Source: an uncultured Planctomycetia bacterium
GTDB taxonomy: Bacteria > Omnitrophota > Gorgyraeia > 2-02-FULL-51-18
Reading direction: 5' to 3'
Assembly: GCA_964606485.1 (NCBI GenBank)
Contig: CAZSGP010000002.1
Coordinates: 138,766-202,765 of the forward strand
Length of the DNA: 64,000 bases
The position numbers were made by a program, and so were the translations under genes. This document shows positions 38,824-63,421 of the stretch, one piece after another (the first letter of the stretch is position 1; each line of letters opens with the position of its first letter). Under the pieces are notes generated by a model. It saw nothing but the letters and a program-made list of their open reading frames with translations, made no database searches and was not told where the DNA came from.

Positions 38824-38852
38824 TTGTTCCGACCCTTTAACATAAAATTTAC

Positions 38853-38925
38853 GGGTCCTGCCGGCGGTTGTCCGTTCAGAACCACCTACGGTGGCTTCCG
38901 AGACGGACGCCTACCGCCGTCACCC
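38853..38925 (+). repeat. 75-nt palindromic repeat element, copy 1 (supplies the last 3 codons and TGA stop of ybeY)
   Basis: gggtcctgccggcggttgtccg...cggacgcctaccgccgtcaccc, flanked by the complementary extension aaaatttacggg/cccgtaaatttt. The central hairpin variant is gaaccacc-tac-ggtggcttc. Confidence 0.85.
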
Positions 38926-39339
38926 GTAAATTTTAGATAATATAAGTTCTTGCCGACTAAACATTTTCTTTTTGTCCGCCGGCTTCTGATCATCATACCC
39001 TAAAAGGTGAAGCGTGCCATGAATCAAATAACGCGCAAGCTCCTCTTTGAATGAAATCTTGAGTTCTTTCGAAAACGATTTGGCCATGTCCACCGAGACA
39101 ACCAAGTCACCCAGATAATCCGACTCTGGCCCAGGGCCAGCGCCGAACGAAATGACGTCGGTGGCATAATCGTGTTTCAGGAATTTTTTGTTGATCTGTC
39201 GAATCTTGCGGTTGTCCGTCAAAAGGACGCTCACCGAGCAGCGCTTCGATTTTTCAGTTTTTAATGTGTGGTGAACAACGCTTGAAACCCAGGACTGTGT
39301 GACGCTTGGCAACTTTTTAGAAAAGCGGACTTCTATCAA
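38920..39339 (-). CDS. ybeY: endoribonuclease YbeY (rRNA maturation factor)
   Basis: 139 aa with the HGTLHLLGYDD zinc-binding motif. The final IYG and the stop codon are encoded within repeat copy 1. Confidence 0.88.
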   Translation of the reverse strand: MIEVRFSKKLPSVTQSWVSSVVHHTLKTEKSKRCSVSVLLTDNRKIRQINKKFLKHDYATDVISFGAGPGPESDYLGDLVVSVDMAKSFSKELKISFKEELARYLIHGTLHLLGYDDQKPADKKKMFSRQELILSKIYG

Positions 39340-41072: not shown

Positions 41073-41096
41073 AATATTCTCTAACCGAAATTGAAC

Positions 41097-41169
41097 GGGT
41101 CCTGCCGGCGGTTGTCCGTTCGAAAGCCACCTTCGGTGTTTTCGAGACGGACGCCTACCGCCGTCACCC
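41097..41169 (+). repeat. 75-nt palindromic repeat element, copy 2 (supplies the last codons and TGA stop of hisS)
   Basis: The same core as copy 1, with the different complementary flank gaaattgaacggg/cccgttcaatttc. The central hairpin is gccacc-UUCG-gtg. Confidence 0.85.
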
Positions 41170-42423
41170 GTTCAATTTTCGAATAATCTCCGTTACCTCA
41201 GTAAACTTAAGCTCTTGTTGACTGCCGTCGTTCAAATCTTTTAAAACAGCGACGCCTTTTTCAATTTCGTTGTCGCCCAAAATAATCATGTACCGACTTC
41301 CGGACTTGTCGGCTGAGCGCATTTGGCTTTTCAGCGACTTGCCGTCCAAATCCATAAAGGCCGCTATTTTATGCGACCGGAGCTCTCCAAGCAACCCAAA
41401 AGCGACTTGAAATGCTTTCTCCCCCAAAGCTGCAAGGAACACGCTGTTTTTTCGGACGGGTGCTGCGTCGTTTTGTTTTTCGAGACACATTTGAAGACGT
41501 TCAACGCCTACTGCAAAACCGACCGCCCCCAATTTTGGCCCACCGAAGGATTCGATTAAATTATCGTAGCGACCGCCTGCTCCCAGCGCGTCTTGAGCGC
41601 CAAGCTTTGGGTGAGTAACTTCAAAAACCGTCAGCGTGTAATAATCAAGACCTCTCACCATAAAATCATCTTGAATGTAGGAAATTTTGAGTGCGTCGAG
41701 CGCTCGGCAAACTTTTTCGTAATGGGCTGTGCTCTCCGCGGTTAGGAATTTTTTTAGCGGCGGCGATTGGCGTGCGATTTTCCGGCACGTTTCAACTTTG
41801 CAATCTAAAAGACGAAATACATTTTTTTCCATGCGGCGTTTGCAGTCCTCGCACAATTCTTTGGCGTGAGGCTTAAAAAATTCAAGAAGCTCTCCCCTAA
41901 AAATTTTTCGCTCGTCGAAAGTTCCGAGATTATTCAGTTTTACTTTGTAGCCATGCGCACCAACAGCGTCTAAAAAAGTGGTGAGTGCGTGAATGGCTTC
42001 GGCGTCGGCGTAAGGGCTATTTGTCCCAAGCTCCTCAACTCCGATCTGATGAAACTGTCTTAAGCGACCCGCTTGGGGACGTTCGCTTCGAAACATCGGA
42101 CCCATGTAATAAAACTTTTCGAGACCATTTTTTTTGTCGAGTTCATTTTCGAGATACGCGCGGACCACACCCGCTGTTCCTTCAGGACGAAGCGCTACAC
42201 GCGTACCAGAGCGATCTTCAAATTCATACATTTCTTTTTGGACAATGTCGGTCTCGGTTCCGATCGCGCGGCAAAAAACATCTTTCTCTTCCATGATGGG
42301 CGTGCGGAGTTCTTGAAATCCAAATTTGGAAAATGTTTCGCGCGCTTTGGATTCGATAAAAGAAAAATCCAGTGCGTCTTGGGAAAAAATATCGTGCGTG
42401 CCGCGAAGGCGTTGAAAATTCAC
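41164..42423 (-). CDS. hisS: histidine--tRNA ligase
   Basis: 419 aa with class-II motifs and a HisRS anticodon-binding C-terminus. The final NG and the stop codon lie within repeat copy 2. Confidence 0.9.
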   Translation of the reverse strand: MNFQRLRGTHDIFSQDALDFSFIESKARETFSKFGFQELRTPIMEEKDVFCRAIGTETDIVQKEMYEFEDRSGTRVALRPEGTAGVVRAYLENELDKKNGLEKFYYMGPMFRSERPQAGRLRQFHQIGVEELGTNSPYADAEAIHALTTFLDAVGAHGYKVKLNNLGTFDERKIFRGELLEFFKPHAKELCEDCKRRMEKNVFRLLDCKVETCRKIARQSPPLKKFLTAESTAHYEKVCRALDALKISYIQDDFMVRGLDYYTLTVFEVTHPKLGAQDALGAGGRYDNLIESFGGPKLGAVGFAVGVERLQMCLEKQNDAAPVRKNSVFLAALGEKAFQVAFGLLGELRSHKIAAFMDLDGKSLKSQMRSADKSGSRYMIILGDNEIEKGVAVLKDLNDGSQQELKFTEVTEIIRKLNG

Positions 42424-46261: not shown

Positions 46262-49200
46262 TTAAGCGGCCTGGCGAATCAGGCGGTCGGCGAGTCTCGC
46301 GGCAGAAAAAGCCTGATTGAGCGTGAGTTTGGCGAGTGCCGGAATCGCTGAGAGCTCCGGATTGTCGAGATCGCTAGCATTTTGAATCTCGTGGCCCGTA
46401 AGCCGCCTCATCAATGAAAAAATATCTGCGAAGTTTTGATCATCCATCTTACGCATCCGCGCGCGTTTTAGACCGATTCGAATTTGCGCTCTAAAATTAG
46501 GGATGTCCCCTTCTTCTAAAGTTTTATGATAAGCAGGAATCGTTTTTGGATCCAACACTCCGCCCGGCGTGGTCAAAAGTGCGGCAGGAATATCGCCAAG
46601 ATCTGTTCCGTCCTCTACCAAATTATCCAGAAGAGACGGTTCCATAGCCTCGATTCTTTTTTTCACTTTTTCGATAAGCTGCGTATCCGTACTTCTTAAA
46701 ATAAATTTTGCATCCTTCTTTGCTAAACTCATTTCGCGGATCAAGATGGGCAGAATGATCTCATCAAACCCTTTAAGCGTCGGCCCAAATTGGTCCAGAT
46801 CCACGATGCCAGCCGCCTCCCCTTGTCCTTGCTTAAGATCTGCCAACGCCAAATTATTTTGCTCGTAAAGCATTTTGAAATCGGCCATGGGCATTTGAAT
46901 TTGAACCCGTTCAGCCTGAGCAGAGCCGGTTATTTTTTTCCAATTCACCTTTTGACTGCCATTGAGCGTCAGGGTTGCGTCGCCGTTGTCGACGTAATCC
47001 AACTCCAGAGCGCCCAACACCAGCTTGGCTGATTTTTCTTCGGTGGCCTGGCGGACACATGCCACGAAAATAACGGTCTCTTCCGGCAAAATCTTTCGCC
47101 CTACTTGTTCTTTGGCCAGCCGCGCGGCTGCGCTTTGCCTGTGTTCCTTTAAATAATGATGGAGCAAAAGTTTGGCCCTATGAAAAATATACGACTGACC
47201 CCGGAACTCGGAACGCTTACGAATCAAGACCTGTTTATTGTTGAGCTTGTTTTTAAAGCTTCGAAGAATTGCTAATTTAACACCGCCATTAGCAAATCCT
47301 TCGCGAATGATTTTTAAATCCGGCTCGAGACTTTGACGCACCGGTTCCGGTAGCGTGCGCACCACGGCGGCCAAGTATTTTATGTGCTCGCTCATACTCG
47401 CGAGCGTAAAATCAGACTCTATAAATACGCCTGAAAATTTTTCAATGACTCTTGAAAAATCCCGCTCAAGCATCTGGTCGATCTCTGCATCTTGCGCTTT
47501 TGAAAGCTCGGCATCCAGCGCTCGCAAAAGTGCCGCTTTCTCGATCTTGTCGTTTAAGAATTTCCCGATCACCTCGCGGCTAAAATAATCCCGCGCCTCC
47601 GGCTGAAGCCGGGTCCACTCCTCGGCAATTTTTAACCGCCAAGCACGCCGGACCTGCTCTCCCTGTACAACTCCCTTAAATGAGATGCCCGCCAAATTCC
47701 GCTTTGGAATAAAAGCCGCGGCGAGACCCGGTAAACGTAAAATGACCGCGTAATCGATCCAGAACTGTTTAAGGCGTTGGGGAATTTGAGTAACGGAACT
47801 GCCGTCAGAATCAGCAAGCCGCGCGCCGCTCTGAGACTCCTTGTCCGACTCGCTCCAAATATCAGAAATTTTTTTAAAAGCAGCCGGAATCCTGTGAATT
47901 GCAGTATCGGCCATAAAATAAATCACAAAACCCAGCCCATAGGCTGTCAGGAGGCTTTGGTAGGCTTGTAATTTAAATACGAAACTTAGTTGATGGAGGT
48001 CAGAGAGGGCCCAAGTGATATTTCCCAAAAAAAGCCAATAAATCGCAAGTCCTTGGGCAAACAGTGCAATCCAGGGCCTTTGATTCCAAATACCGGTCCG
48101 TAGTAGACCGATCGGAATCGCAACCCCCATAGAAAAGGGCAAGATCCCGCACAAAAAAACAGAAAATCGTGGCAAGTGGTGGCCAAAAACCGGCAGAGTG
48201 TATCCCGACGCAGCTCCGGGCGGATCGACATGGGCTACAACGCCCGGTACCCAAAGAACCGCTTGATTCAAAATTCCTGCAAAGGCGGTCGCTTCGGGGT
48301 TAAATCCGACGGCGGAGATCCCGCCCATTAAAAAAACGGGGATGTGGTGAAAAAGCTCGTGGCAAAAAAATGAAATCGCATTGAGCGGAAGGTAGTAACC
48401 AAAGTACGGGTCAAAAACAAAACTAAATCCGACGACAAAAAAAATCAGCTTCCGCCACTGCCAATCATTTTCGGCATTCAATGCTTTTTTCACAATTAAG
48501 GCGTGTAGAGGCAACATCGCAGCGGCATTCGCTAGATATTCGTAAGCGAGCCTCGCGCCCTGAGCGCGTTGTCCGGACCGAAGCGCGAACAACTCTTCCG
48601 CGGAAACTTCCACCACCGTCTGGTTATTAAAACGAGTATCGAGCAACGAGCAAATGCTGTCCCAACTTAGAAGAATATCAGGGTAATCCGTCCGATCGGG
48701 TCTTTGATAGCGAATGCCTACGCTCTCTGACGTCGCAACGATCATCGCTTTCTGCGCCGAACTTTTCATCGGCCGCTCAATCATCAGCTTGCGCGCATTT
48801 TTAGACTTGAGAGCCGCTTCGAGCTTCGGCATAATTCCAACAATGATCGCTCTTGTGTCTGCACGGAAACTACTGACTAAAATTTTTGGGGTTGTTGCTG
48901 GCAAACTGTCGATCGCTTCAATAATTTCCCGCGCTTTAGCCGCAGAATAGTCGTCCAACACCGGTGCTTTGTTGGGAAGTAAATGCTGGTGCAAAACCGC
49001 GCCTTGAGGCGCGCGGCCCTTCTCTAGGGAAACAGCAACAATGCCCTGACAATTGAACAATCCACCTGTCGCGAGCATCGTGTGGCTATTCAATTCGCCC
49101 GAAATCATCGCGGACTTTTCAGGAGAACCGAATTCCGCATTCAAAATCTTGAAACCCTGCCCACGGTAAACATCAGTCGCCACTCTCATGAACGGTGCCT

Positions 49201-52200
49201 CCTCCCGAAACCGTTGATAGGCGTTTAAGGCGAGCCGCGCGCCAATTTTTGATGCTGCTTTGCGACGATAATAGCGGAATCGTTCAGCACGTTTTCGGGC
49301 GTGCCCAATAGCCGACCGCCGCTCAGACAAAGGATTGTAATCGCGGCGCATGTCGGCCATCTTGGATAAAATTCGGGCACTGTGCTTCCAAGAGATGAAT
49401 GTTATTTCCACCCCCATGGCGCGCGCGAATCTTCGAAATTGAATTCTCTCGTTCCTACTACCAATTGGACGGCGCGCCGCCCTCCAAGCCCGCCATGAAT
49501 TCCAGACCATGTCGGAATCAATGGGGCCAACTTTTCCGGCGATCAATCGCCCATCCACCGACCGGATGAAAGTGACTCCAAGCGGCGAAATATGAAAATT
49601 TTGAGTGCCCATATTCACGAAATTAGCGATATCGTGCTCGGAGGGCATTTTGAGCCAATTCACGTTGTATCCCGGGCCCATATTGTGTGTGTGAAAATCA
49701 ATTATAATCCGGCCTTGTTTAGCGAGCTCATTCAATTCACCGGTCAGCTCAACGTTCGTTTTATCTCCCGTGACGAGTAACCATTCGCCGCTGTCGAGAT
49801 AGATGATTTCCACTTCGAAATCAAGATGTAGCATCCAACGCATGTCCGACAAGTTTGGCATGTAACGAATTTGGAATACCCGCTGGCGGCCCGGCCGCAC
49901 TAGTCGCAACGCTTCCCGCAATTTCGCCATCGTTAAAATGGGATAACTGCCTTTTTTAGTAGCTTGTTTTTGCCAAATAGCAACGCTCGAGGAAAGCCGC
50001 GCGCCAAATTTCTCATCGGCCAATCGACGCGCCTCTTTTCGCCGCTCGCGCGTTAAAATACTTCCTCTTTTTGAAATCCAAAAACGGATCACCGAAAATA
50101 AACGGGCCGAGTAGCGGTTCGCCGGACCCACGTAAACGCGATAGGCTAATTTCCGAATAAATTGCCCCGCCGTCATGTCCACCGCGATGTCGCCGCTGGG
50201 AGTTTGAAGAACTGCATAATCATGAACCGGACGATCCTGAATATAAATTCTTTCAATTCTTGAGGGGATATTTAATTCATACAGCGCATCCAGTAACAGT
50301 GCCGTCACCACCTGGCAGAAGCCGCCATCGGGTGCTCCATAAAAAAGAAGGGTCGCGTAACGATCTCTATCCCCTTCTTTCAAAGTTAATCGAAGTTCGC
50401 TGTTGTAGAGCGCCCCAATAAATTTTTTGAGTGCCGGGCCGTGAAGATTCATCGCCTTTCGGACCGATTCCAAGCTAATTTCCTCACTTCTTAATGAAGC
50501 GAACGCAAGAACGATCGACTCTTTGAATAAATCATGCATCAGTCGGTCTGCGTCCAACATGCTTTCGTGTTGTGCGTCACGGTCTGAGGACAATCTAGAA
50601 CCTTCGGAGAGCCGCGCGCCTCCCATTAGGCCTTCCAATAGAGCTACCTTCGTTTTTCCATCATCATAAAGGCGCTTGATGAGCTGGTGTTTTTTGGTAG
50701 TTCGGGCATTGATTTCAGCGATGGTTTCGGGTAAAGCGCCGGGCGCATCTGCCGCCGTCAGTAGCAGCGGCGAGTCGATTCTTTCAAGCTTCGCGCTCCA
50801 AGATTCAGAGGATGCTCTAATTCTATTTAACATCTCCAGATAACGTTCAGCAGCTTGGCGAACACGAACTTTATCTGTTCGGCCATCTTTCGCCAAACGA
50901 ATCAACAAATCCGCAAAAGATAAAAATCTTGCCACACTTTCTGAACTCACCCCAAGATCAGGGTCGATCACCGCGGGTGACGATAGATAAGCTAAATACC
51001 CTTCGGCATCTTCCAGGTCATCCTCATCGAAAAGAGGCGCGGATTCGAAATAGATCCTCATAGCCCGTAGAAGCAAGTAATGACGCCTGAGAATCGTCGC
51101 CTCTTCATCTTCTCCAAATCGCGAAATATCGAGATCAACTGACGCGGCATCGTAACCGAATCTTGCGCTCATTTGATCCAGACTCGGGGCAAGATCGGAC
51201 TGGTTTAAATTTAAAAAAATCCTCTTCACGGTATTAATTCCGGTGGACGAGGAAGCATCTCCCAGCTCACCCCGCTGATATAGATGGAACCAGCGATCAG
51301 CCGAATCATGTGTCAGCGACAACCCTTTTTGGGCCTGAGAAAGAACATCTTCTGGTCTAAGCGCGTCAACCTCACGAAAAACCTTTTCTTTTAAAGGATG
51401 ATCGACCGTAAGAAACGTTTGAATATCCGCGTTCCCGCCAAGATGCCTTAAGATCAGATTGCCCATCCACGGATCGGACAAAAGCGAGCTTTTGACGGCC
51501 AACCGCGCGCCCGACCCGTCTTTTGAAGTATCACCTCTCTCGATGCCTTTTTCACGATCCATAAATTTACTGTCTTTTATAAATTTTTCTACAACGCCAA
51601 ACGTCATTAAAACCGAGGAAAGATCTAAAATAATATCAACGACTATACGGCGAATTTGTCTAGCGCTTCTGGGACGAATCTTCCGAATGCGATCGACGTG
51701 CCCTTCAAACCTAAATATCATTCGGTGCCACAACCGTCTAAAGTCATCAAACATGGCGTACGCAAAACCGCAGGTGGGTCCGGCAAGATAAATAAGCAGA
51801 CACCCCCCAACCCCAAAAATTAGAAAGTCCAGAGAAGCGCCGGATGAGAGGCGCGCGCCGTCTTCACGTACCACCCACTTACTCGGAGCAACGGTGAGAT
51901 CAGCAACAAAATCGACATCGGCTGCCGATTTTTGCGCATACAGCTCCCAAGCTTGGTTCTTTAACTCGATCAACCTTCGGCGAAACTCGATAAACGCGTC
52001 ATCTCCTTTATAGAGCTGCCGAGAACGCTCGACAAATCTCTCCGTGGTTGCGCGCGAATCGCTTTTCAAGCGAACGTGAAGATGAGGTATCGCATCCCGT
52101 TCAAAATTCAATAAATGCGCGCACGTCCAATCCACTAGAAGGACATCGCCTTTTTTAAAGGTAAATTCTTTTGGGCCCATTTTGCGCTCGTTGCGATGAT

Positions 52201-55200
52201 AGGCGTTGGGGACCATAATGCGGGTTTCTTGGGATACGTCTTGATTCAGGAAATGACTGCGCAGCTTGTCAAAAAATCGACTCACCTCTTCAACCTGGTA
52301 AGTGTCTTCGTACTCCGTAGTAAACGGCTTTCCGGCACTCACTATTTTTTTAAAAATAGCTGCTTTTTTTTCGGGATCAATCAGGAATAGGTCTATATCG
52401 AGAGGCTCGTTTGGAGTCGAAACGCCGATCAGTCTGAGAGCGGGCGCGAGAGCGCGTGTTAGCGTCGTTTTTCCGCCGCCCGAAAGACCATCAAAAAATA
52501 CAATACCGCCGGACGGCAAATGTTTTTTGATTTGCCCTGCAAGTTGCTCCGCCAATCTTTTATAAGCTTCAACTTCTTCCGGCGAAATTTGAGCGGACCT
52601 GCCTCGCTCTGCGGCCAGCCGCATATTAAGCTCTGACGAATAAGCGATCTTGCCGTCAGCGGCCAATCTCGACGCCGCCTTTAGCGCTTGATTCAGATAA
52701 GCGATGGCGCGCTTTTGATCGTCCTTTTTAAGCGCATGCAGTCCCAAGATGTGGGATACGGCAAATAAATTTCTTTGTGGGAAAAGCTCCTGAATCAAAA
52801 TCGCCACATCGAAATAGTCATCGGTGCGAATCGAGTTGTCGTCCTTGAGCAGAGAAAAAATAACCGCTAAATCTTCAAGCGCCACATTCCCCGTTTTTTC
52901 TTTGGCGTCGGCTGAGCCGCCGATTCCGCCAATTGAGCCGTCAAAATGCGTCATTCCCTCTTCGAGAGCGACGAGAACATTCACGAGGCCCAAACCGTGA
53001 TCGTGCAAATGCCACCCGAATTCCAAACCTTCAAACGGCCCGCCCTTTTTATTTCTTTTCAAGACAAACCGTGAAAATTTCCGAATATCCTCAGGCTTTG
53101 CCCTTCCGGAAGTATCGCTCAGCCAAATTTTTGTGACCCCATTGTCCCGGAGCGCCCTGATATTGGCGGCCAGCATTTTAAAAGTAACCTTCTCTTTGCT
53201 GTAAGAGGGAATCGCCGAAATATAACCGTGCTTTTCGATCGAATGCCCAGTTTCCCGTTCATAGCCGGCAATCTCGTTCAGCATGGGGACCACTTTCGCC
53301 GTAAAATCCTCCAGCGGGCTCTTGTCGATTCTGGCTGCCCGCTCCATTTTTTTTGCCATTTTTTCCTTCAGCTTAGCTTTCTCGTCAGCGCCAGTCTCGA
53401 TAGCAATGCTTTTTTCTAATTCTTTAATATAGCGCTCGGAAACTTGTTGATTGTCTTTTAGATACTCCTTCGAGGCCGACGTCCACACCGCGATCGCTTG
53501 AGGTCGAGCGTCGCTCTCACGCAATTTGCTCCAGGATTCTTGATTGAACAGCAAATGGCGCACCGTCGGCACTTCGTGATCTTTGCGATATTCGGCTAGC
53601 CATCTGGCAAATTCAGGAGAATCTGCCATCGATGCATAGACCCCGAACGAAGTCGCTTCGAGCGGAAGACCAAGCTTAAACAAAAGCTTCGCGAGTTTTT
53701 TCTTAGATTCGGTGGTTAGAATCGGCTTCAGGCTTTGAATGCCGTCCCGCAGGGTGTCGTCGCTGATGTAAATTTTATTTATGTTCAGGATTTTTTTAAC
53801 TTTTTCTAAATCCACTCCGGAAGCGTTGAGTTTCGAAATAAATTCGTCAATCCGCGCTTTGATATCATCAAACTCTACGGTCTCCGCTAGCCTCGTAGCT
53901 TGAATTTTTAGCTCTTCTGCGGAAATTTCAACCACCGTCTGGTTATTAAAACGAGTATCGAGCAGCGAGCGAATGCTGTCCCAACTGAGAAGAATATCAG
54001 GGTAATCCGTTCGATCAGGTTTTTGAGTGCGGATACCCACACTCTCCGACGTCGCAACGATCATCGCTTTCTGCGCAGAACTTTTCATCGGTCGCTCAAT
54101 CATCAACATGCGCGCGTTTTTAGACTTGAGGGCCGCTTCGAGCTTCGGCATCATGCCAACAATAAGCGCTCGTGTATCTGCGCGAAAACTGCTGATTAGA
54201 ATTTTTGGGGCGGGACTAGGCAAGCTGTCAGCGGCCTCTATGATTTCTTGCGCTTTGATCGCCAAATAGTCGTCCGATGCTGGAGCTTTACTGGGAAGTA
54301 AATGCTGGTGTAAAACCGTTCCCTGAGTCGCGCGGCCCTTCTCCAGCGAAACAGCTACAGCTCCCTGACAATTGAACAATCCGCCTGTCGCAAGCATCGT
54401 CCGGTCATTCAACTCCCCGGAAATCATCGCAGACTTTTCAGGAGAGCCAAATTCCGCGTTCAATATTTTGAAACCCTGGTCACGGTAAACATTAGTCTCC
54501 GCTCTCATAAACGGTGCTTTCTCCCGAAACCGTTGATAAGCATTTAAGGCGAGGCGGGCGCCATCTCCACCTTTTTGTTGACCACTCACCACCTCCGGAG
54601 TGGAAATGGGTAGTTTCTCGAAATCATTTCGAAGAAGCCCAACTGTATCGCGCCCCATCAACCCTGCGTCCATCACGGACACGGTCTGAAGCATGCTCGC
54701 CGGAACGCTTAAAAACTTTGGAGTGGAATTCGACCCCAAAAGAATCTGCTCGTACCGCTTTTGATTGGTTTCGTGCAGGACCTGAGGGCGAAGTGAAATG
54801 TAGGAAATATTTTTAGAACGCAGAATCGACTTGAGATTGGCGGTGTGATAGCCGCCTGTGATCAAAACTGATAACAGCGGGTCCTGCCGGCGGTTGTCCG
54901 TTCGAAAGCCACCTTCGGTGTTTTCGAGACGGACGCCTACCGCCGTCACCCGCTGCTGCTCAGCTTGATTCAGCATATTCTCAATAAATTTTTCATCGCG
55001 CTTAAGTGTTAGTGTGTAAAACGCTTCCGCGCTTGTAACGATTTCGTCGAAACCCGGCTCAAGGAAGGCGGCGTGTTCATAAAATTGCTTCTGTTCCATG
55101 ATTTTTAAGTTCAGAAATCCGGTCAGCGGCTTGATGCTGTCGCCTGCTTTTTTGAATTCAGCGTATTCTTCAGGCGTTAGCTGAAAGTTAAACAGCTTTC

Positions 55201-56197
55201 GGTAAAAATAAAGCGTTCGGACAGAACGAAGCAAGTTTTGCTCATCCGGCGTTTGAGCCAAACTTTGAAAGACTTCATTTTCCATAGCCTTCTGCTCGGT
55301 CATTAAGTCTGAATAATTCAACGCCTTCGACGAACGAATGATTCTTTCGAGGATTGTCTTCTGATGCTTCGGGGAAACCTTGAGACGATCCAGCTTCTTC
55401 TCGAGTGCTTTTAGTTTTTGGAGGCGTTTGAAATTCGGATAACGACCCTTGATGGGCTGACTCATCAGAATATCCGCGTAAACCACGAAGGAGGTTTCGC
55501 CTTTACGGTATTTCTCGTAAGAGTTTTCAAAGGATAAAAGGACAGGGTTTAGAATCCGGGGTTTCAGCACTTCAATCGTATTCTGAATTTTATCGAGATA
55601 ACTTTCAAAGCGTCCGCGCTCACTAGCCACACCGCGATACAGTTCTAGCGCTTGCCGGTATAAATCTTTGTCCTCTACGCCCCATAACTGAAAGTCGTGG
55701 TCAGATATAAGGTCTAAATATTCTTCGCCGTGAATCAGCCCCTTTTGAAGATAACTTCTGGCAATATTTTTTCTTTGCTCGGTGCTTCCGTATTGACGCA
55801 AGAAGGAAAGCGAGTCGTTTCCGAAGCCGCCTTCGACGAAAACCTGGATCTTATCGTCATTCCTGCGCAAGCGGGAATCTAATCGCTCTGATCCCCGCCT
55901 ACGCGGGGATGACTGGATATTTTTCGCCAAAATTAGATCAAGCGACTTCGCAAGATTGAGCTGTCCTGAAGGATTGGTGTGCGCATCCTGTAAGAGGATG
56001 ACGATCTGCGGACCACCATGCCACGCATCTTCCACAGTTGCCATCGAAGAAGGAATTGAAGGTAAAACGCTTTCAGCCCATTTCGCGCTTTGAAATTGCT
56101 GGAATTTCAGGAAGTCAAAACTTTTGGAATCAGGGTTCGCAAAACTTAAATCCTGCAGAAAAAAAGTAAAAACGAGCCCCAAGGAAATGGCTTTCAT
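46262..56197 (-). CDS. giant (3311 aa) multidomain membrane-associated protein of unknown function
   Basis: An uninterrupted 9,936-nt ORF. It has a signal-peptide-like N-terminus, a duplicated ~220-aa domain, a DRE-TIM/HMGL-like domain (DTLRDGIQS, DTSGRAKPEDI, HLHDHGLG...DGSIGGIGG), a P-loop motif (GLSGGGKTT), TM helices near aa ~1470 and ~1530, a TM bundle at aa ~2540-2760 with HELFHH, an in-frame 75-nt repeat insertion, and a recurrent GARL(A/S) motif. Confidence 0.75.
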   Translation of the reverse strand: MKAISLGLVFTFFLQDLSFANPDSKSFDFLKFQQFQSAKWAESVLPSIPSSMATVEDAWHGGPQIVILLQDAHTNPSGQLNLAKSLDLILAKNIQSSPRRRGSERLDSRLRRNDDKIQVFVEGGFGNDSLSFLRQYGSTEQRKNIARSYLQKGLIHGEEYLDLISDHDFQLWGVEDKDLYRQALELYRGVASERGRFESYLDKIQNTIEVLKPRILNPVLLSFENSYEKYRKGETSFVVYADILMSQPIKGRYPNFKRLQKLKALEKKLDRLKVSPKHQKTILERIIRSSKALNYSDLMTEQKAMENEVFQSLAQTPDEQNLLRSVRTLYFYRKLFNFQLTPEEYAEFKKAGDSIKPLTGFLNLKIMEQKQFYEHAAFLEPGFDEIVTSAEAFYTLTLKRDEKFIENMLNQAEQQRVTAVGVRLENTEGGFRTDNRRQDPLLSVLITGGYHTANLKSILRSKNISYISLRPQVLHETNQKRYEQILLGSNSTPKFLSVPASMLQTVSVMDAGLMGRDTVGLLRNDFEKLPISTPEVVSGQQKGGDGARLALNAYQRFREKAPFMRAETNVYRDQGFKILNAEFGSPEKSAMISGELNDRTMLATGGLFNCQGAVAVSLEKGRATQGTVLHQHLLPSKAPASDDYLAIKAQEIIEAADSLPSPAPKILISSFRADTRALIVGMMPKLEAALKSKNARMLMIERPMKSSAQKAMIVATSESVGIRTQKPDRTDYPDILLSWDSIRSLLDTRFNNQTVVEISAEELKIQATRLAETVEFDDIKARIDEFISKLNASGVDLEKVKKILNINKIYISDDTLRDGIQSLKPILTTESKKKLAKLLFKLGLPLEATSFGVYASMADSPEFARWLAEYRKDHEVPTVRHLLFNQESWSKLRESDARPQAIAVWTSASKEYLKDNQQVSERYIKELEKSIAIETGADEKAKLKEKMAKKMERAARIDKSPLEDFTAKVVPMLNEIAGYERETGHSIEKHGYISAIPSYSKEKVTFKMLAANIRALRDNGVTKIWLSDTSGRAKPEDIRKFSRFVLKRNKKGGPFEGLEFGWHLHDHGLGLVNVLVALEEGMTHFDGSIGGIGGSADAKEKTGNVALEDLAVIFSLLKDDNSIRTDDYFDVAILIQELFPQRNLFAVSHILGLHALKKDDQKRAIAYLNQALKAASRLAADGKIAYSSELNMRLAAERGRSAQISPEEVEAYKRLAEQLAGQIKKHLPSGGIVFFDGLSGGGKTTLTRALAPALRLIGVSTPNEPLDIDLFLIDPEKKAAIFKKIVSAGKPFTTEYEDTYQVEEVSRFFDKLRSHFLNQDVSQETRIMVPNAYHRNERKMGPKEFTFKKGDVLLVDWTCAHLLNFERDAIPHLHVRLKSDSRATTERFVERSRQLYKGDDAFIEFRRRLIELKNQAWELYAQKSAADVDFVADLTVAPSKWVVREDGARLSSGASLDFLIFGVGGCLLIYLAGPTCGFAYAMFDDFRRLWHRMIFRFEGHVDRIRKIRPRSARQIRRIVVDIILDLSSVLMTFGVVEKFIKDSKFMDREKGIERGDTSKDGSGARLAVKSSLLSDPWMGNLILRHLGGNADIQTFLTVDHPLKEKVFREVDALRPEDVLSQAQKGLSLTHDSADRWFHLYQRGELGDASSSTGINTVKRIFLNLNQSDLAPSLDQMSARFGYDAASVDLDISRFGEDEEATILRRHYLLLRAMRIYFESAPLFDEDDLEDAEGYLAYLSSPAVIDPDLGVSSESVARFLSFADLLIRLAKDGRTDKVRVRQAAERYLEMLNRIRASSESWSAKLERIDSPLLLTAADAPGALPETIAEINARTTKKHQLIKRLYDDGKTKVALLEGLMGGARLSEGSRLSSDRDAQHESMLDADRLMHDLFKESIVLAFASLRSEEISLESVRKAMNLHGPALKKFIGALYNSELRLTLKEGDRDRYATLLFYGAPDGGFCQVVTALLLDALYELNIPSRIERIYIQDRPVHDYAVLQTPSGDIAVDMTAGQFIRKLAYRVYVGPANRYSARLFSVIRFWISKRGSILTRERRKEARRLADEKFGARLSSSVAIWQKQATKKGSYPILTMAKLREALRLVRPGRQRVFQIRYMPNLSDMRWMLHLDFEVEIIYLDSGEWLLVTGDKTNVELTGELNELAKQGRIIIDFHTHNMGPGYNVNWLKMPSEHDIANFVNMGTQNFHISPLGVTFIRSVDGRLIAGKVGPIDSDMVWNSWRAWRAARRPIGSRNERIQFRRFARAMGVEITFISWKHSARILSKMADMRRDYNPLSERRSAIGHARKRAERFRYYRRKAASKIGARLALNAYQRFREEAPFMRVATDVYRGQGFKILNAEFGSPEKSAMISGELNSHTMLATGGLFNCQGIVAVSLEKGRAPQGAVLHQHLLPNKAPVLDDYSAAKAREIIEAIDSLPATTPKILVSSFRADTRAIIVGIMPKLEAALKSKNARKLMIERPMKSSAQKAMIVATSESVGIRYQRPDRTDYPDILLSWDSICSLLDTRFNNQTVVEVSAEELFALRSGQRAQGARLAYEYLANAAAMLPLHALIVKKALNAENDWQWRKLIFFVVGFSFVFDPYFGYYLPLNAISFFCHELFHHIPVFLMGGISAVGFNPEATAFAGILNQAVLWVPGVVAHVDPPGAASGYTLPVFGHHLPRFSVFLCGILPFSMGVAIPIGLLRTGIWNQRPWIALFAQGLAIYWLFLGNITWALSDLHQLSFVFKLQAYQSLLTAYGLGFVIYFMADTAIHRIPAAFKKISDIWSESDKESQSGARLADSDGSSVTQIPQRLKQFWIDYAVILRLPGLAAAFIPKRNLAGISFKGVVQGEQVRRAWRLKIAEEWTRLQPEARDYFSREVIGKFLNDKIEKAALLRALDAELSKAQDAEIDQMLERDFSRVIEKFSGVFIESDFTLASMSEHIKYLAAVVRTLPEPVRQSLEPDLKIIREGFANGGVKLAILRSFKNKLNNKQVLIRKRSEFRGQSYIFHRAKLLLHHYLKEHRQSAAARLAKEQVGRKILPEETVIFVACVRQATEEKSAKLVLGALELDYVDNGDATLTLNGSQKVNWKKITGSAQAERVQIQMPMADFKMLYEQNNLALADLKQGQGEAAGIVDLDQFGPTLKGFDEIILPILIREMSLAKKDAKFILRSTDTQLIEKVKKRIEAMEPSLLDNLVEDGTDLGDIPAALLTTPGGVLDPKTIPAYHKTLEEGDIPNFRAQIRIGLKRARMRKMDDQNFADIFSLMRRLTGHEIQNASDLDNPELSAIPALAKLTLNQAFSAARLADRLIRQAA
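48612..49245 (-). repeat. intragenic duplication, unit B (~640 bp) within the giant ORF
   Basis: Paralogous to 53925..54565. Encodes the second copy of the ~220-aa domain, immediately N-terminal of the HExxH transmembrane domain. Confidence 0.85.
53925..54565 (-). repeat. intragenic duplication, unit A (~640 bp) within the giant ORF
   Basis: About 88-90% nucleotide identity to 48612..49245. Encodes GARLALNAYQRF...MLATGGLFNCQG...VVEISAEEL. Confidence 0.85.
54879..54951 (+). repeat. 75-nt palindromic repeat element, copy 3 (in-frame insertion inside the giant ORF)
   Basis: The same core, with the complementary flank cagcggg/cccgctg. In the host frame it reads RVTAVGVRLENTEGGFRTDNRRQDP. Confidence 0.85.
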
Positions 56198-56394: not shown

Positions 56395-57753
56395 TTATTC
56401 GATAGGGATTAAAATGGGTTCAGAACCGTATTGACTCCGGGTGTCAGCCGATAAAACGGTTAATTGAATACAGGCTTTTGAGGTCTCGTATTCGGGCTGG
56501 CCCAAGCCCATGTCCATAACGGGCCGGCGAACCACACTCCCGTTGATTAAAAAATCATCTTCAGCGGATTGCCCGGGTTCGATCGTGATCGAATCAACGG
56601 ACGTATATACACCCATGATACTTCCCATCGAAAAATAAAAAGGGCCATCCTGTCCCTCGCCGGACCAGTTAAGTTTTCCATTGGGCTTAAATAGATGGAT
56701 CGATTCGGATCCGCTATTCGCTAGCCGCGCATGAAAAGAGTAAACGCCCGGCGACGAAATACCTTTGAAATCAAGCGTGATATTCAACCCTTCTCTCTGA
56801 TAAGTTGAGGCAACGGTGATGCGATTGCTCCACACCGGCTTTTCATAACCTTTGCGGTAAAAACCAAGGCGAAAACTCTTGAATGTTTGTAAACGCAAAT
56901 TTGCCGCCATGGAATCCATGGGATGCGAATATGAAAAAAGAAGCTCTCCTTCAAAAGGCTTTCCCGGAACGAGCTCCATCTGGTCTTCCCCCCGCTGCCC
57001 CCACGGAATCGAAGCGACATGGCCCGTCGAAACCCAGGGTTCATAACCGGGTGTATTCATGAGTCCTTCGGTCGTAAGCGTAAGGGGTTCACCACCCTTA
57101 TTCGACACGCGGTAGCGCGCGACATGCATGGGCACATTCTGCATTGACGCGGTTTTTTTGACGGACAAAATCTCAAGTGTAATGACTGGATCCTCGGCCT
57201 CATCTAGCGGATAGATGATTAGCGCTTCGTCGGGATCCTGCGGTAAAATTTTGGTCTGCGCCAGCGCCTCAATCCGATCTACGGCTTTAGACATCAGGAT
57301 TTTTAAATCCTCCAAATTTTTAAATTCTATCGAGTTTAAATTTTTGAGAGTCGAGCGGCTAGAAAAAATTTTAAGTCCTCTATTGGCACTCAAAAAAATG
57401 CGGTCATCATCAACGTTCAATCCGACAACGCCATACAAACCTCCGAATGAAGTGCTGAAAAATCCTCCGAACATTCGGTAATCCCGGATTTTTTGGTATA
57501 GATTACCCAATGATTTCTGGTCTAAAACTGCTGTCTTCTCGTCTTGTGTGACAACGAGGCTGTAGATATTCTTATCGGGATCAAACACGACAAAAGCGCC
57601 AATAGGGTTTGGTTTTCCAGGAAGCACTTCAAAGGATTCGATTGTCCGTGCTTTAGGACCTACGATTTTTGAAAAATCAGGCGAGTCTGCGTAAGAAAAC
57701 GGCGCTAATAATAAAACCCACAAAACCAAAAAAGCTTTTGGTTTTATTCCCAT
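56395..57753 (-). CDS. secreted hypothetical protein (signal peptide, no recognisable domain)
   Basis: 452 aa. The N-terminus [27 protein letters not shown] is signal-peptide-like. No motif recognised. Lies directly upstream of the giant gene on the same strand. Confidence 0.6.
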
Positions 57754-62499: not shown

Positions 62500-63421
62500 G
62501 CTGAATTTTTAACACTCTCTCAATTCCGTTAAAATCTTTGATAAATTCCAAATTTTTGTAATTCGAACTATCTTTTAAAATTTTGCGCAACGCCTTCGAT
62601 TGCCCCGCGCCGATTTCCATCAAAAGAAAACCGCCCTTTTTTAAATAACGCGGCGCTTCATCCAAAATTTTCTCGATGATCTGAAGTCCGTTTTTTCCAC
62701 CGTCCAGCGCGAGCCTTGGGTCGCACTTCACTTCAGGCGACAAACCGTTTAATTCCTTTTTGGGAATATACGGAGGATTTGAAACAATCACATCCCATTG
62801 CGCTCCCGGCTTTATCGAACTAAAAAGGTCGCTTTTTTGAAAATGAATCTGCTTCCCAACCCCATGCAATCTAGCGTTTTTACGAGCTAAATTCAGCGCT
62901 TTTTGGCTCTTATCGAGAGCCGTCATTCTACAGTCGGGTAAAGCCAGAGTCAAGCTGACCGCAACGCACCCTGATCCAGTACCTAAATCTAGAATTTCGG
63001 GCTCGGGGTCCTGCCGGCGGTTGTCCGCTCGAAAGCCACCTTCGGTGTTTTCGAGACGGACGCCTACCGCCGTCACCCCTCGCTCTTGACTCTTAGCTAG
63101 AACAGATAGGGTTTCGCTTACCAAAATCTCCGTCTCGGGCCGTGGAATCAGCGCGTCTTTGGTCGTGATGAACCGGTGCCCATAAAACCAAGCTTCTCCC
63201 AAGATATGCTGAAGCGGCTCGCGCTTGATGCGCCGCTTGAGCGCCTTCTCAATCTTTTTTTGGGTGACACTGGAAACCGGCTGATCCTTTAAAAAAAAAT
63301 CCGCTCGGCCAAGCTTCGTAAAATGGCCCAGTAAAATTTCAGCTTCCGCTTGGGCGGATGCTATTTTATTTTTTTTAAATATATTTCGGATATTATTTAA
63401 TAAATGAAAGGTGGTGAGCAA
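62492..63421 (-). CDS. prmC: release factor glutamine methyltransferase (PrmC/HemK) with in-frame repeat-element insertion
   Basis: 309 aa; NPPY motif (VSNPPYIPKKE), SAM-binding LDLGTGSG. A 25-aa insertion GVTAVGVRLENTEGGFRADNRRQDP, encoded by repeat copy 4, sits just before the MTase domain. Confidence 0.9.
   Translation of the reverse strand: MLTTFHLLNNIRNIFKKNKIASAQAEAEILLGHFTKLGRADFFLKDQPVSSVTQKKIEKALKRRIKREPLQHILGEAWFYGHRFITTKDALIPRPETEILVSETLSVLAKSQERGVTAVGVRLENTEGGFRADNRRQDPEPEILDLGTGSGCVAVSLTLALPDCRMTALDKSQKALNLARKNARLHGVGKQIHFQKSDLFSSIKPGAQWDVIVSNPPYIPKKELNGLSPEVKCDPRLALDGGKNGLQIIEKILDEAPRYLKKGGFLLMEIGAGQSKALRKILKDSSNYKNLEFIKDFNGIERVLKIQHG
63006..63078 (+). repeat. 75-nt palindromic repeat element, copy 4 (in-frame insertion inside prmC)
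   Basis: The same core, with gttgtccgCtcgaaa as the one variant position. The flanks are only partly complementary (ctcgggg / cccctcg). Confidence 0.85.

Follow-up and report, generated by a model that had tools for sequence, protein, structure and literature searches.

Why one short peptide should recur between unrelated domains of a single very long bacterial protein is the question raised by a 64,000-nucleotide stretch of DNA from an uncultured bacterium of the phylum Omnitrophota (NCBI GenBank assembly GCA_964606485.1, contig CAZSGP010000002.1, positions 138,766–202,765 of the forward strand), referred to here as the window. Positions 46262–56197 of its minus strand are a single open reading frame (ORF) of 3,311 codons, translated into 3,311 amino acids (aa), for which an initial annotation had described a G/A-A-R-L-A/S pentapeptide at about ten apparent module boundaries and proposed that the product is processed there, with an embedded HExxH membrane module as the possible protease. 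The pentapeptide is a conserved short site at the junctions of a large family of giant proteins and is absent within the Pfam domains of those scanned. The most economical reading of these sequences, and on balance a probable one, is that the giant ORFs encode polyproteins with the pentapeptide as predicted processing site; a TIKI-like leader domain is the leading candidate protease, the best available, but unproven.

A recurrent pentapeptide in the giant protein

The window protein combines several modules in one ORF, among them an HMGL-like domain and a P-loop kinase. The pattern [GA]ARL[AS] begins at aa 546, 1447, 1563, 1860, 2065, 2319, 2547 and 2791 as GARL[AS] and at aa 3024 and 3299 as AARLA: ten sites where composition predicts 0.068, including eight GARL[AS] where 0.026 are expected. 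These counts were matched in none of 5,000 residue shuffles, whose maxima were 2 for [GA]ARL[AS] and 1 for GARL[AS], so that the recurrence at about ten boundaries stands with chance excluded. In a six-frame scan of the 64-kb window the pentapeptide lies in the frame of the giant ORF, with just two occurrences elsewhere, neither in a listed ORF. Degenerate copies mark three more domain borders: ATRLA (aa 767), ASRLA (aa 1175) and GSRLS (aa 1866). The contexts first quoted for the motif are all present as given except the second 'DGARLALNAYQRF', which actually reads 'IGARLALNAYQRF'. The spacing had been called regular, a description that does not hold: successive gaps of 901, 116, 297, 205, 254, 228, 244, 233 and 275 aa, mostly 205–297, are domain-sized and non-periodic. 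The sites and the modules between them are as follows.

46262–56197, minus strand: giant ORF of 3,311 aa, with N-terminal hydrophobic helix, conserved N-domain, about nine variable modules and conserved C-domain
54728–56197, minus strand: conserved N-terminal domain (aa 1–490), predicted TIKI/ChaN/TraB/EreA-like fold with a large helical insert
55973–55990, minus strand: QDAHTN (aa 70–75) at the end of strand 65–71, holding invariant D71 and H73
55832–55834, minus strand: invariant E122, end of strand 118–121
54845–54856, minus strand: GGYH (aa 448–451) at the end of strand 442–448, holding invariant H451
aa 491–545, minus strand: linker after the N-domain, disordered in the AlphaFold2 (AF2) model
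54548–54562, minus strand: motif 1, GARLA (aa 546; GGC GCC CGC CTC GCC), where the N-domain linker ends and copy 1 of the duplicated unit begins
53912–54563, minus strand: duplicated unit copy 1, 652 nt, 84.7% identical to copy 2 (blastn)
53885–53899, minus strand: ATRLA (aa 767), a degenerate copy separating duplicated unit copy 1 from the HMGL-like domain
52805–53776, minus strand: HMGL-like (pyruvate carboxyltransferase/aldolase TIM-barrel) domain, aa 808–1131 (Pfam accession: PF00682; E 2.3e-21)
52661–52675, minus strand: ASRLA (aa 1175), a degenerate copy separating the HMGL-like domain from the P-loop kinase-like region
51866–52573, minus strand: P-loop kinase-like region, aa ~1209–1444
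51845–51859, minus strand: motif 2, GARLS (aa 1447)
51590–51838, minus strand: module 3, with two hydrophobic transmembrane-like segments, aa 1454–1476 and 1518–1536 (hydropathy scan)
51497–51511, minus strand: motif 3, GARLA (aa 1563)
50606–50620, minus strand: motif 4, GARLS (aa 1860), followed 6 aa later by degenerate GSRLS (aa 1866; 50588–50602)
49991–50005, minus strand: motif 5, GARLS (aa 2065)
49229–49243, minus strand: motif 6, GARLA (aa 2319), where copy 2 of the duplicated unit begins
48593–49244, minus strand: duplicated unit copy 2
48545–48559, minus strand: motif 7, GARLA (aa 2547)
47828–48559, minus strand: orphan membrane module with HELFHH, aa 2547–2790, without counterpart in relatives
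47813–47827, minus strand: motif 8, GARLA (aa 2791)
47114–47128, minus strand: motif 9, AARLA (aa 3024), where the conserved C-terminal domain begins
46265–47128, minus strand: conserved C-terminal domain, aa 3024–3311, generic alpha/beta fold
46289–46303, minus strand: motif 10, AARLA (aa 3299), in the terminal helix 13 aa from the C-terminus, a position kept in many relatives

Conservation across a family of giant proteins

A database search returned 118 other giant proteins of 1.8–5.7 thousand aa, and wider comparisons cover 208 family proteins; the relatives belong almost entirely to Omnitrophota metagenome-assembled genomes (MAGs). All 118 share their first ~500 aa with the window protein and some also their last ~290 aa, and the middles are unrelated, with Pfam matches to glycolytic/gluconeogenic and sugar-nucleotide enzymes, kinases, methyltransferases, sigma factors and HEAT repeats. 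The motif is kept family-wide: GARL[AS] occurs 417 times in these 118 homologues, where 2.8 would be expected, and the broad pattern reaches 685 occurrences (13.7 expected). GARLA alone is found 349 times, the median of its 60 letter permutations being 2, and a chance or compositional origin is thus ruled out by this permutation control together with the shuffles and composition expectation. Inheritance of a linker through one repeated duplication is likewise ruled out, the modules of the window protein being mutually unrelated save one duplicated unit while the motif persists. They are also unrelated to the modules of relatives; the P-loop kinase is the sole internal module with a relative (aa 973–1215 of family protein P0120), likewise followed by GARLS.

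Aligned at 491 GARL sites, position 5 is A in 71%, S in 14%, T in 5% and G in 4% (2.1 bits), and flanking positions hold no more than 0.3 bit; the tetrapeptide is fixed in this logo by construction, its enrichment having been established independently. With five informative positions and a small residue last, the logo is, to judge by sequence, of the shape of a protease recognition site. The Gly/Ser/Asp-rich linker first described around the motif is weakly supported, since the depletion of order-promoting residues (0.23–0.24 against a background of 0.33), measured at 894 sites in relatives, extends over just ~5 residues to either side. Sites are about tenfold denser in the giant ORFs than in other ORFs at the same loci (1.5 against 0.14 per 1,000 aa).

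Within the family-wide consensus [G/A]-[A/S]-R-[L/M/A/V]-[A/S], the variant in use is common to the paralogs of one genome and differs between genomes: GARLA in CAYODQ, AARLA in CAMDWQ, GARMA in CAZBAY and JAGVCY, GAR[A/M]A in CAYJVC, and GSRLA in the proteins P0076 and P0081. Uniformity within a genome and difference between genomes are what co-evolution of the sites with a single recognising protein in each genome should produce.

A profile search with the N-domain matched 9,552 clusters at 50% identity. Among the matches listed that cover the profile start, the domain begins no more than ~30 residues from the N-terminus in every one, and the longest protein among the matches listed reaches 7,482 aa; newly listed members carry the motif at 1.4 per 1,000 aa, the same density as before. 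Single MAGs may hold many giant paralogs led by the N-domain (at least six loci in isolate WC_9, five in binchicken_co165_23 and four in NC_groundwater_242), and two such loci can share one contig (L011 with L012, and L049 with L051, of the loci L001–L078). Some records among these 78 loci are labelled Planctomycetia, Eisenbacteria or Auribacterota.

Placement between complete domains

The motif sits between unrelated domains, as had been proposed for the window protein. In ten proteins examined for this purpose, none of 92 sites falls inside a Pfam match against 13.3 expected, an outcome reached in none of 20,000 simulations. The relatives contain complete enzymes (PEPCK, aldolase, PFK, hexokinase, TIM, ADK) and the regulator CsrA, bracketed as whole units. 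In P0035, GTP-PEPCK (aa 1025–1595) is flanked by sites at 976 and 1625, a class-I aldolase (1633–1984; profile positions 1–333 of 349) by sites at 1625 and 1983, and PFK (2394–2673) by sites at 2372 and 2870; the hexokinase of P0112 lies between sites at 2383 and 3034; and in P0006 PEPCK_ATP, adenylate kinase (ADK) and a 94-aa CsrA module are each flanked by sites.

Neighbouring sites across the family are separated by a median of 268 aa. First sites concentrate at aa 500–640, just past the N-domain, and in the window protein aa 491–546, around that site, are disordered in the AF2 model; the last site stands 9–13 aa from the C-terminus in many members. Short spacers also occur, with 45 of the 583 gaps between paired sites below 50 aa (for example, 6 aa in the window protein and 11 aa in P0076).

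Conserved terminal domains

Motif-bearing proteins have just two parts in common, the TIKI-like domain at the N-terminus and the conserved domain at the C-terminus. The TIKI superfamily includes ChaN, HopBA1, PMT, Ere-family proteins and RRSP, and is characterised by a 2His/2Glu catalytic motif (E-x-H...E...H) at strand ends, with Tiki and RRSP acting as site-specific endopeptidases (PMC6254334). The AF2 model of the N-domain (predicted local distance difference test, pLDDT, 80.8; predicted template-modelling score, pTM, 0.74) has a parallel beta-strand core with flanking helices and is structurally like ChaN, Ere, HopBA1 and RRSP. D71-x-H73, E122 and H451 are invariant in 25 aligned sequences, are also kept in motif-less distant members, and lie at the ends of strands 65–71, 118–121 and 442–448, Asp replacing the first Glu of the TIKI motif. 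The model is assigned to the TIKI-superfamily fold with moderate confidence, since sequence-profile methods and Foldseek miss the relationship: no Pfam match to a TIKI-superfamily family (TraB, Tiki, ChaN/Cofac_haem_bdg, Erythro_esterase) was found at E≤1, no PDB profile match was obtained, and Foldseek against PDB was also without result. The domain further differs from known members of the superfamily (Tiki, TraB/PrgY, ChaN, erythromycin esterases, HopBA1, RRSP, PMT) in its ~240-aa helical insert and in always heading a giant multi-module protein.

Two in-frame insertions lie in the N-domain. A GC-rich hairpin repeat of 73–75 nt is present in four copies in the window (54878–54952, 63006–63078, 41096–41170 and 38852–38926) that are 91–100% identical by blastn, with an RNA minimum free energy of -51 kcal/mol (z -5.7); two copies are in frame within coding sequence (aa ~416–440 of the N-domain, and prmC) and two are intergenic. 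The repeat has no Rfam family match and resembles the Rickettsia-type palindromic elements that insert into ORFs. The peptide that it encodes in the N-domain forms a low-confidence loop in the AF2 model and recurs in this domain of P0002 and P0012. A second in-frame insertion, SSPRRRGSERLDSRLRRNDDK (window 55844–55918; aa 94–118), is coded by short GC hairpins (CCCCGC-GTAG-GCGGGG) and is likewise a low-pLDDT loop; 24–26-nt pieces of its DNA recur in L045, L007 and L039 from other Omnitrophota MAGs.

The C-domain is modelled as a generic alpha/beta fold (pLDDT 80.8) with no invariant residue but the final Ala. The C-termini of the family (P0002–P0209; window 46265–46303) usually end in [AS]-A (QAA, QSA, GSA, RAA) after a conserved terminal helix, often with the last GAR[L/M]A 9–13 aa from the end. 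This small dipeptide recalls C-terminal recognition tags, such as the ssrA-type ...LAA.

A probable processed polyprotein and its alternatives

The codons of the motif bear on the level at which it is constrained. Arg is encoded at the sites by both CGN and AGR (CGC, CGG, AGG, AGA) and Leu by both CTN and TTR (CTC, CTT, CTG, TTG), and the two copies of the intragenic duplication (652 nt, ~217 aa, a domain of unknown function, 84.7% DNA identity) have diverged by 15% at the DNA level and retain GARLA through synonymous changes. Selection of the short motif at the peptide level, as a marker of the borders of independent modules, is strongly supported by the sequence comparisons. The opposite reading, in which nucleic acid is primarily constrained and a ~14-nt sequence, GGCGCGCGGCT(C/G)GC, acts as a recombination or junction sequence or as an RNA-level signal with the peptide as by-product, draws on several observations. 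Codon choice at the sites varies less than codon usage would lead one to expect, in the window gene (GGC 8/8, P 3e-4; GCG 9/10, P 1e-3; CGG 6/10, P 9e-3; CTC 6/10, P 1e-3) and in 58 other loci (GGC 156 against 90 expected, GCG 129 against 76, CGG 110 against 45); GGCGCGCGGCT with at most one mismatch has 12 matches against 1.96 expected, almost confined to the giant gene; the homology of the duplicated copies starts 1 nt ahead of the first codon of the motif in both (blastn); and BLAST homology blocks between paralogs begin and end near motifs more often than random. Against it stand the fixed amino acids over varying Arg and Leu codons, the conservative nature of the variants (L/M, G/A, A/S) and their consistency within a genome, and the restriction of the DNA motif to the coding frame and strand. 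As the primary explanation it is improbable, and the nucleotide layer alone cannot explain the peptide pattern; a role for the DNA may co-exist with one for the peptide, and this layer suggests that junction-coding DNA may provide microhomology for module duplication and exchange, or may be under selection for accurate decoding. A rare-codon translational pause is unlikely, GGC and GCG being the commonest Gly and Ala codons of the gene and CGG 22% of its Arg codons.

In the reading favoured here, the Omnitrophota ORF would encode a multi-enzyme polyprotein, and a site-specific endopeptidase would recognise G-A-R-L-[A/S] and separate the modules. The leading candidate enzyme is the protein's own N-terminal domain, with its predicted TIKI fold and invariant D-x-H...E...H, which may be tethered by the N-terminal hydrophobic helix and act in cis, or in trans on paralogous polyproteins. 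Cleavage at L|A/S (L or M before A or S) would parallel the Leu sites of MARTX toxins and leave an N-terminus that is stabilising under the N-end rule; a cut after the Arg is equally possible because this residue is strictly invariant. Cleavage as such, the bond cut and the enzyme are what we infer from a motif whose non-randomness, family-wide conservation, strictly inter-domain placement and genome-specific variants are observed, and from the fold and invariant residues of the N-domain. The earlier notion of a polyprotein-type boundary site fits the family-wide, inter-domain, enzyme-bracketing and genome-specific character of the motif; its embedded HELFHH processor is not supported, as set out below.

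Several points weigh against this reading. The last motif lies within a predicted helix instead of a linker. Motifs are scarce or missing in part of the family, including two whole genomes (JBLINS, JACPAX) and the most distant members, yet D-x-H/E/H is kept there, so the activity of the N-domain need not be tied to the motif; a de novo motif search in motif-poor relatives gave a faint ARMA signal only and no alternative motif. The N-terminus looks like a Sec signal peptide, and an exported N-domain could not reach cytoplasmic junctions; other hydrophobic stretches, at aa 1454–1536 and within the 2547–2790 module, also bear on membrane topology. The codon bias at sites, finally, amounts to a constraint beyond the peptide.

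The motif might be recognised and left uncut, as a docking, modification or regulatory site in the linkers of one membrane-tethered multi-enzyme assembly, read by a partner such as a chaperone, a modifying enzyme or one of the two conserved terminal domains. Selection at the peptide level, the position of sites between domains and the variation of the motif from genome to genome fit binding as well as cutting, the last copy sits in a conserved terminal helix and not in a linker, and a 2026 preprint views these proteins as membrane-anchored multi-enzyme clusters. Modules starting only a few residues from natural enzyme starts (profile position 1 of the aldolase is 8 aa past the site) and the very short spacers between paired sites are, however, both features that processed polyproteins commonly show. 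The need for a small residue at position 5 is in addition a classic P1' signature, and an uncut motif is considered unlikely. That the motif is cut by a separate genome-encoded or housekeeping protease, and not by the N-domain, is a serious alternative, if a doubtful one: genome-wide uniformity of the variant among paralogs fits a single trans-acting enzyme per genome; P0087, P0089, P0093 and P0112 bear the motif without either N-domain signature, as far as their records go; the putative catalytic residues of the N-domain persist in motif-less members; and export of the N-domain would leave the junctions to some cytoplasmic enzyme. In the gene neighbourhood no conserved protease was detected, the flanks being housekeeping genes and the 452-aa ORF upstream having no relative in 78 loci, and among enzyme-like elements the N-domain alone is found with the motif in every case. 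The metalloprotease first suggested, HELFHH inside a polytopic hydrophobic module (aa 2547–2790; hydropathy), is a very improbable processor. It has no Pfam match at E≤1, and so none to M50, M48 or another HExxH peptidase family, and neither BLAST nor phmmer finds a relative of it in the other 208 family proteins, which do carry the motif; a database search with the module returned nothing, a weak negative because the source protein itself was not returned. Its absence from all 208 relatives rules it out as a general protease, and on this sequence comparison it cannot be the processing enzyme of the family, though it may have a local role.

Comparison with known systems

The closest known systems are viral polyproteins and MARTX toxins, from which the present family differs in its candidate fold, its cargo, its strict pentapeptide and its very large number of chromosomal paralogs. 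In viral polyproteins (picornavirus 3C, coronavirus Mpro, potyvirus NIa, flavivirus NS3), one ORF encodes unrelated proteins separated by a short junction site with a small P1' residue, the protease is encoded in the same polypeptide, and site and protease co-vary between lineages. The giant ORFs likewise string together functional proteins of unrelated kinds, and each junction has a short conserved site with a small residue; they differ in lying in a cellular genome, in a candidate protease of the TIKI-superfamily fold class, and in that cleavage is proposed from sequence comparison. Cyanobactin-type precursors of ribosomally synthesised and post-translationally modified peptides, and the head proteins of phages phiKZ and T4, likewise place short recognition sequences around variable cassettes served by one dedicated protease, but those cassettes are peptides or virion proteins, whereas here they are enzymes of 100–900 aa. 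Leaders of the double-glycine (C39) type have GG, GA or GS at -2/-1 preceded by a hydrophobic pattern at -4, -7 and -12; processing of this type does not match the motif, which has at most 0.3 bit upstream, or the window protein, which has no C39 domain.

In MARTX (multifunctional autoprocessing RTX) toxins, cleavage takes place at Leu within the unstructured stretches that separate effectors (PMC2900308). The toxins of Vibrio and relatives combine glycine-rich RTX repeats with a C80 cysteine protease and a type I secretion operon, and the window protein does not belong with them: Pfam shows neither RTX nor C80, and the flanking genes are housekeeping genes (dnaE, guaA, hisS, aspS, rnhB). Its modules and those of its relatives are housekeeping-type metabolic enzymes and regulators, not toxins, the site is a strict pentapeptide and not merely Leu with a small residue, and the family is chromosomal, multi-copy and derived from Omnitrophota-like MAGs.

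Giant proteins of Omnitrophota have been described as 'Archaeovorins' and dockerin-type proteins (West-Roberts et al. 2023 preprint) and as 'multi-enzyme metabolic clusters' (2026 preprint 10.64898/2026.06.07.730766). Both preprints leave cutting open, with C39 or S8 peptidase domains proposed as possible processors, and the 2023 preprint states that information on cleavage points is lacking. The window protein resembles these giants in phylum, great length, scattered metabolic enzyme domains, signal peptides and transmembrane segments, and differs in having no C39 or S8 domain in a Pfam scan. The junction motif, the TIKI-like leader and the conserved C-terminal domain are not mentioned in the text of either preprint, cleavage is not mentioned in the Nature Microbiology survey, and searches for the motif, and for polyproteins together with Omnitrophota, found nothing relevant in the searchable literature. 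On sequence grounds the motif is put forward as the first concrete candidate for the cut sites of these giant proteins.

Genomic setting and remaining modules

The giant gene is embedded among housekeeping genes, with dnaE downstream, the 452-aa ORF and then guaA upstream, and hisS, aspS, rnhB, trmD, aroA, prmC, glyQS, pyruvate phosphate dikinase and rpoC nearby; the window protein itself is present in a public NCBI record (here P0001). The 452-aa ORF directly upstream (56395–57753, minus strand) has a signal-like N-terminus, and was rejected as a partner because it has no Pfam match and no relative across the 78 related loci.

The HMGL-like domain is the only Pfam match in the window protein, in which no RTX repeats and no C80 or C39 domain were found. 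Module 5 (aa 1860–2064; 50006–50620) contains GGFCQVV, VHDYAV and DIAVD, a Cys...His...Asp-like arrangement that recalls transglutaminase-like cysteine proteases, and module 6 (aa 2065–2318; 49244–50005) contains HTH...PSEHD, which recalls the JAMM motif; both are unverified impressions, and neither module has a Pfam or PDB sequence match. PDB sequence searches of modules 5, 6 and 7 gave nothing useful, and database searches with internal pieces returned nothing, a weak negative given that the source protein was also missed.

Implications for Omnitrophota

The giant genes of Omnitrophota are an open puzzle, for which the motif yields explicit cut-point predictions in thousands of proteins, lets giant ORFs be divided by computer into modules that can then be annotated and modelled, and comes with a named candidate enzyme and three residues to mutate. 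Should cleavage prove true, enzymes of central metabolism would be expressed as a polyprotein in a cellular organism, an arrangement not found in the searchable literature, and a new pair of sequence-specific protease and site would be added. A wider and more speculative proposal, doubtful as a whole, is that much of the cytoplasmic enzyme and regulator content of Omnitrophota is produced in the form of membrane-tethered polyproteins, in thousands of families with several paralogs per genome and lengths reaching at least 7,500 aa, each led by a TIKI-type endopeptidase cutting G-A-R-(L/M)-A, with the junction DNA GGCGCGCGGCTSGC doubling as microhomology for module duplication and exchange. If true, cells would have their own equivalent of the polyprotein strategy of viruses, linked to an inbuilt mechanism of module shuffling.

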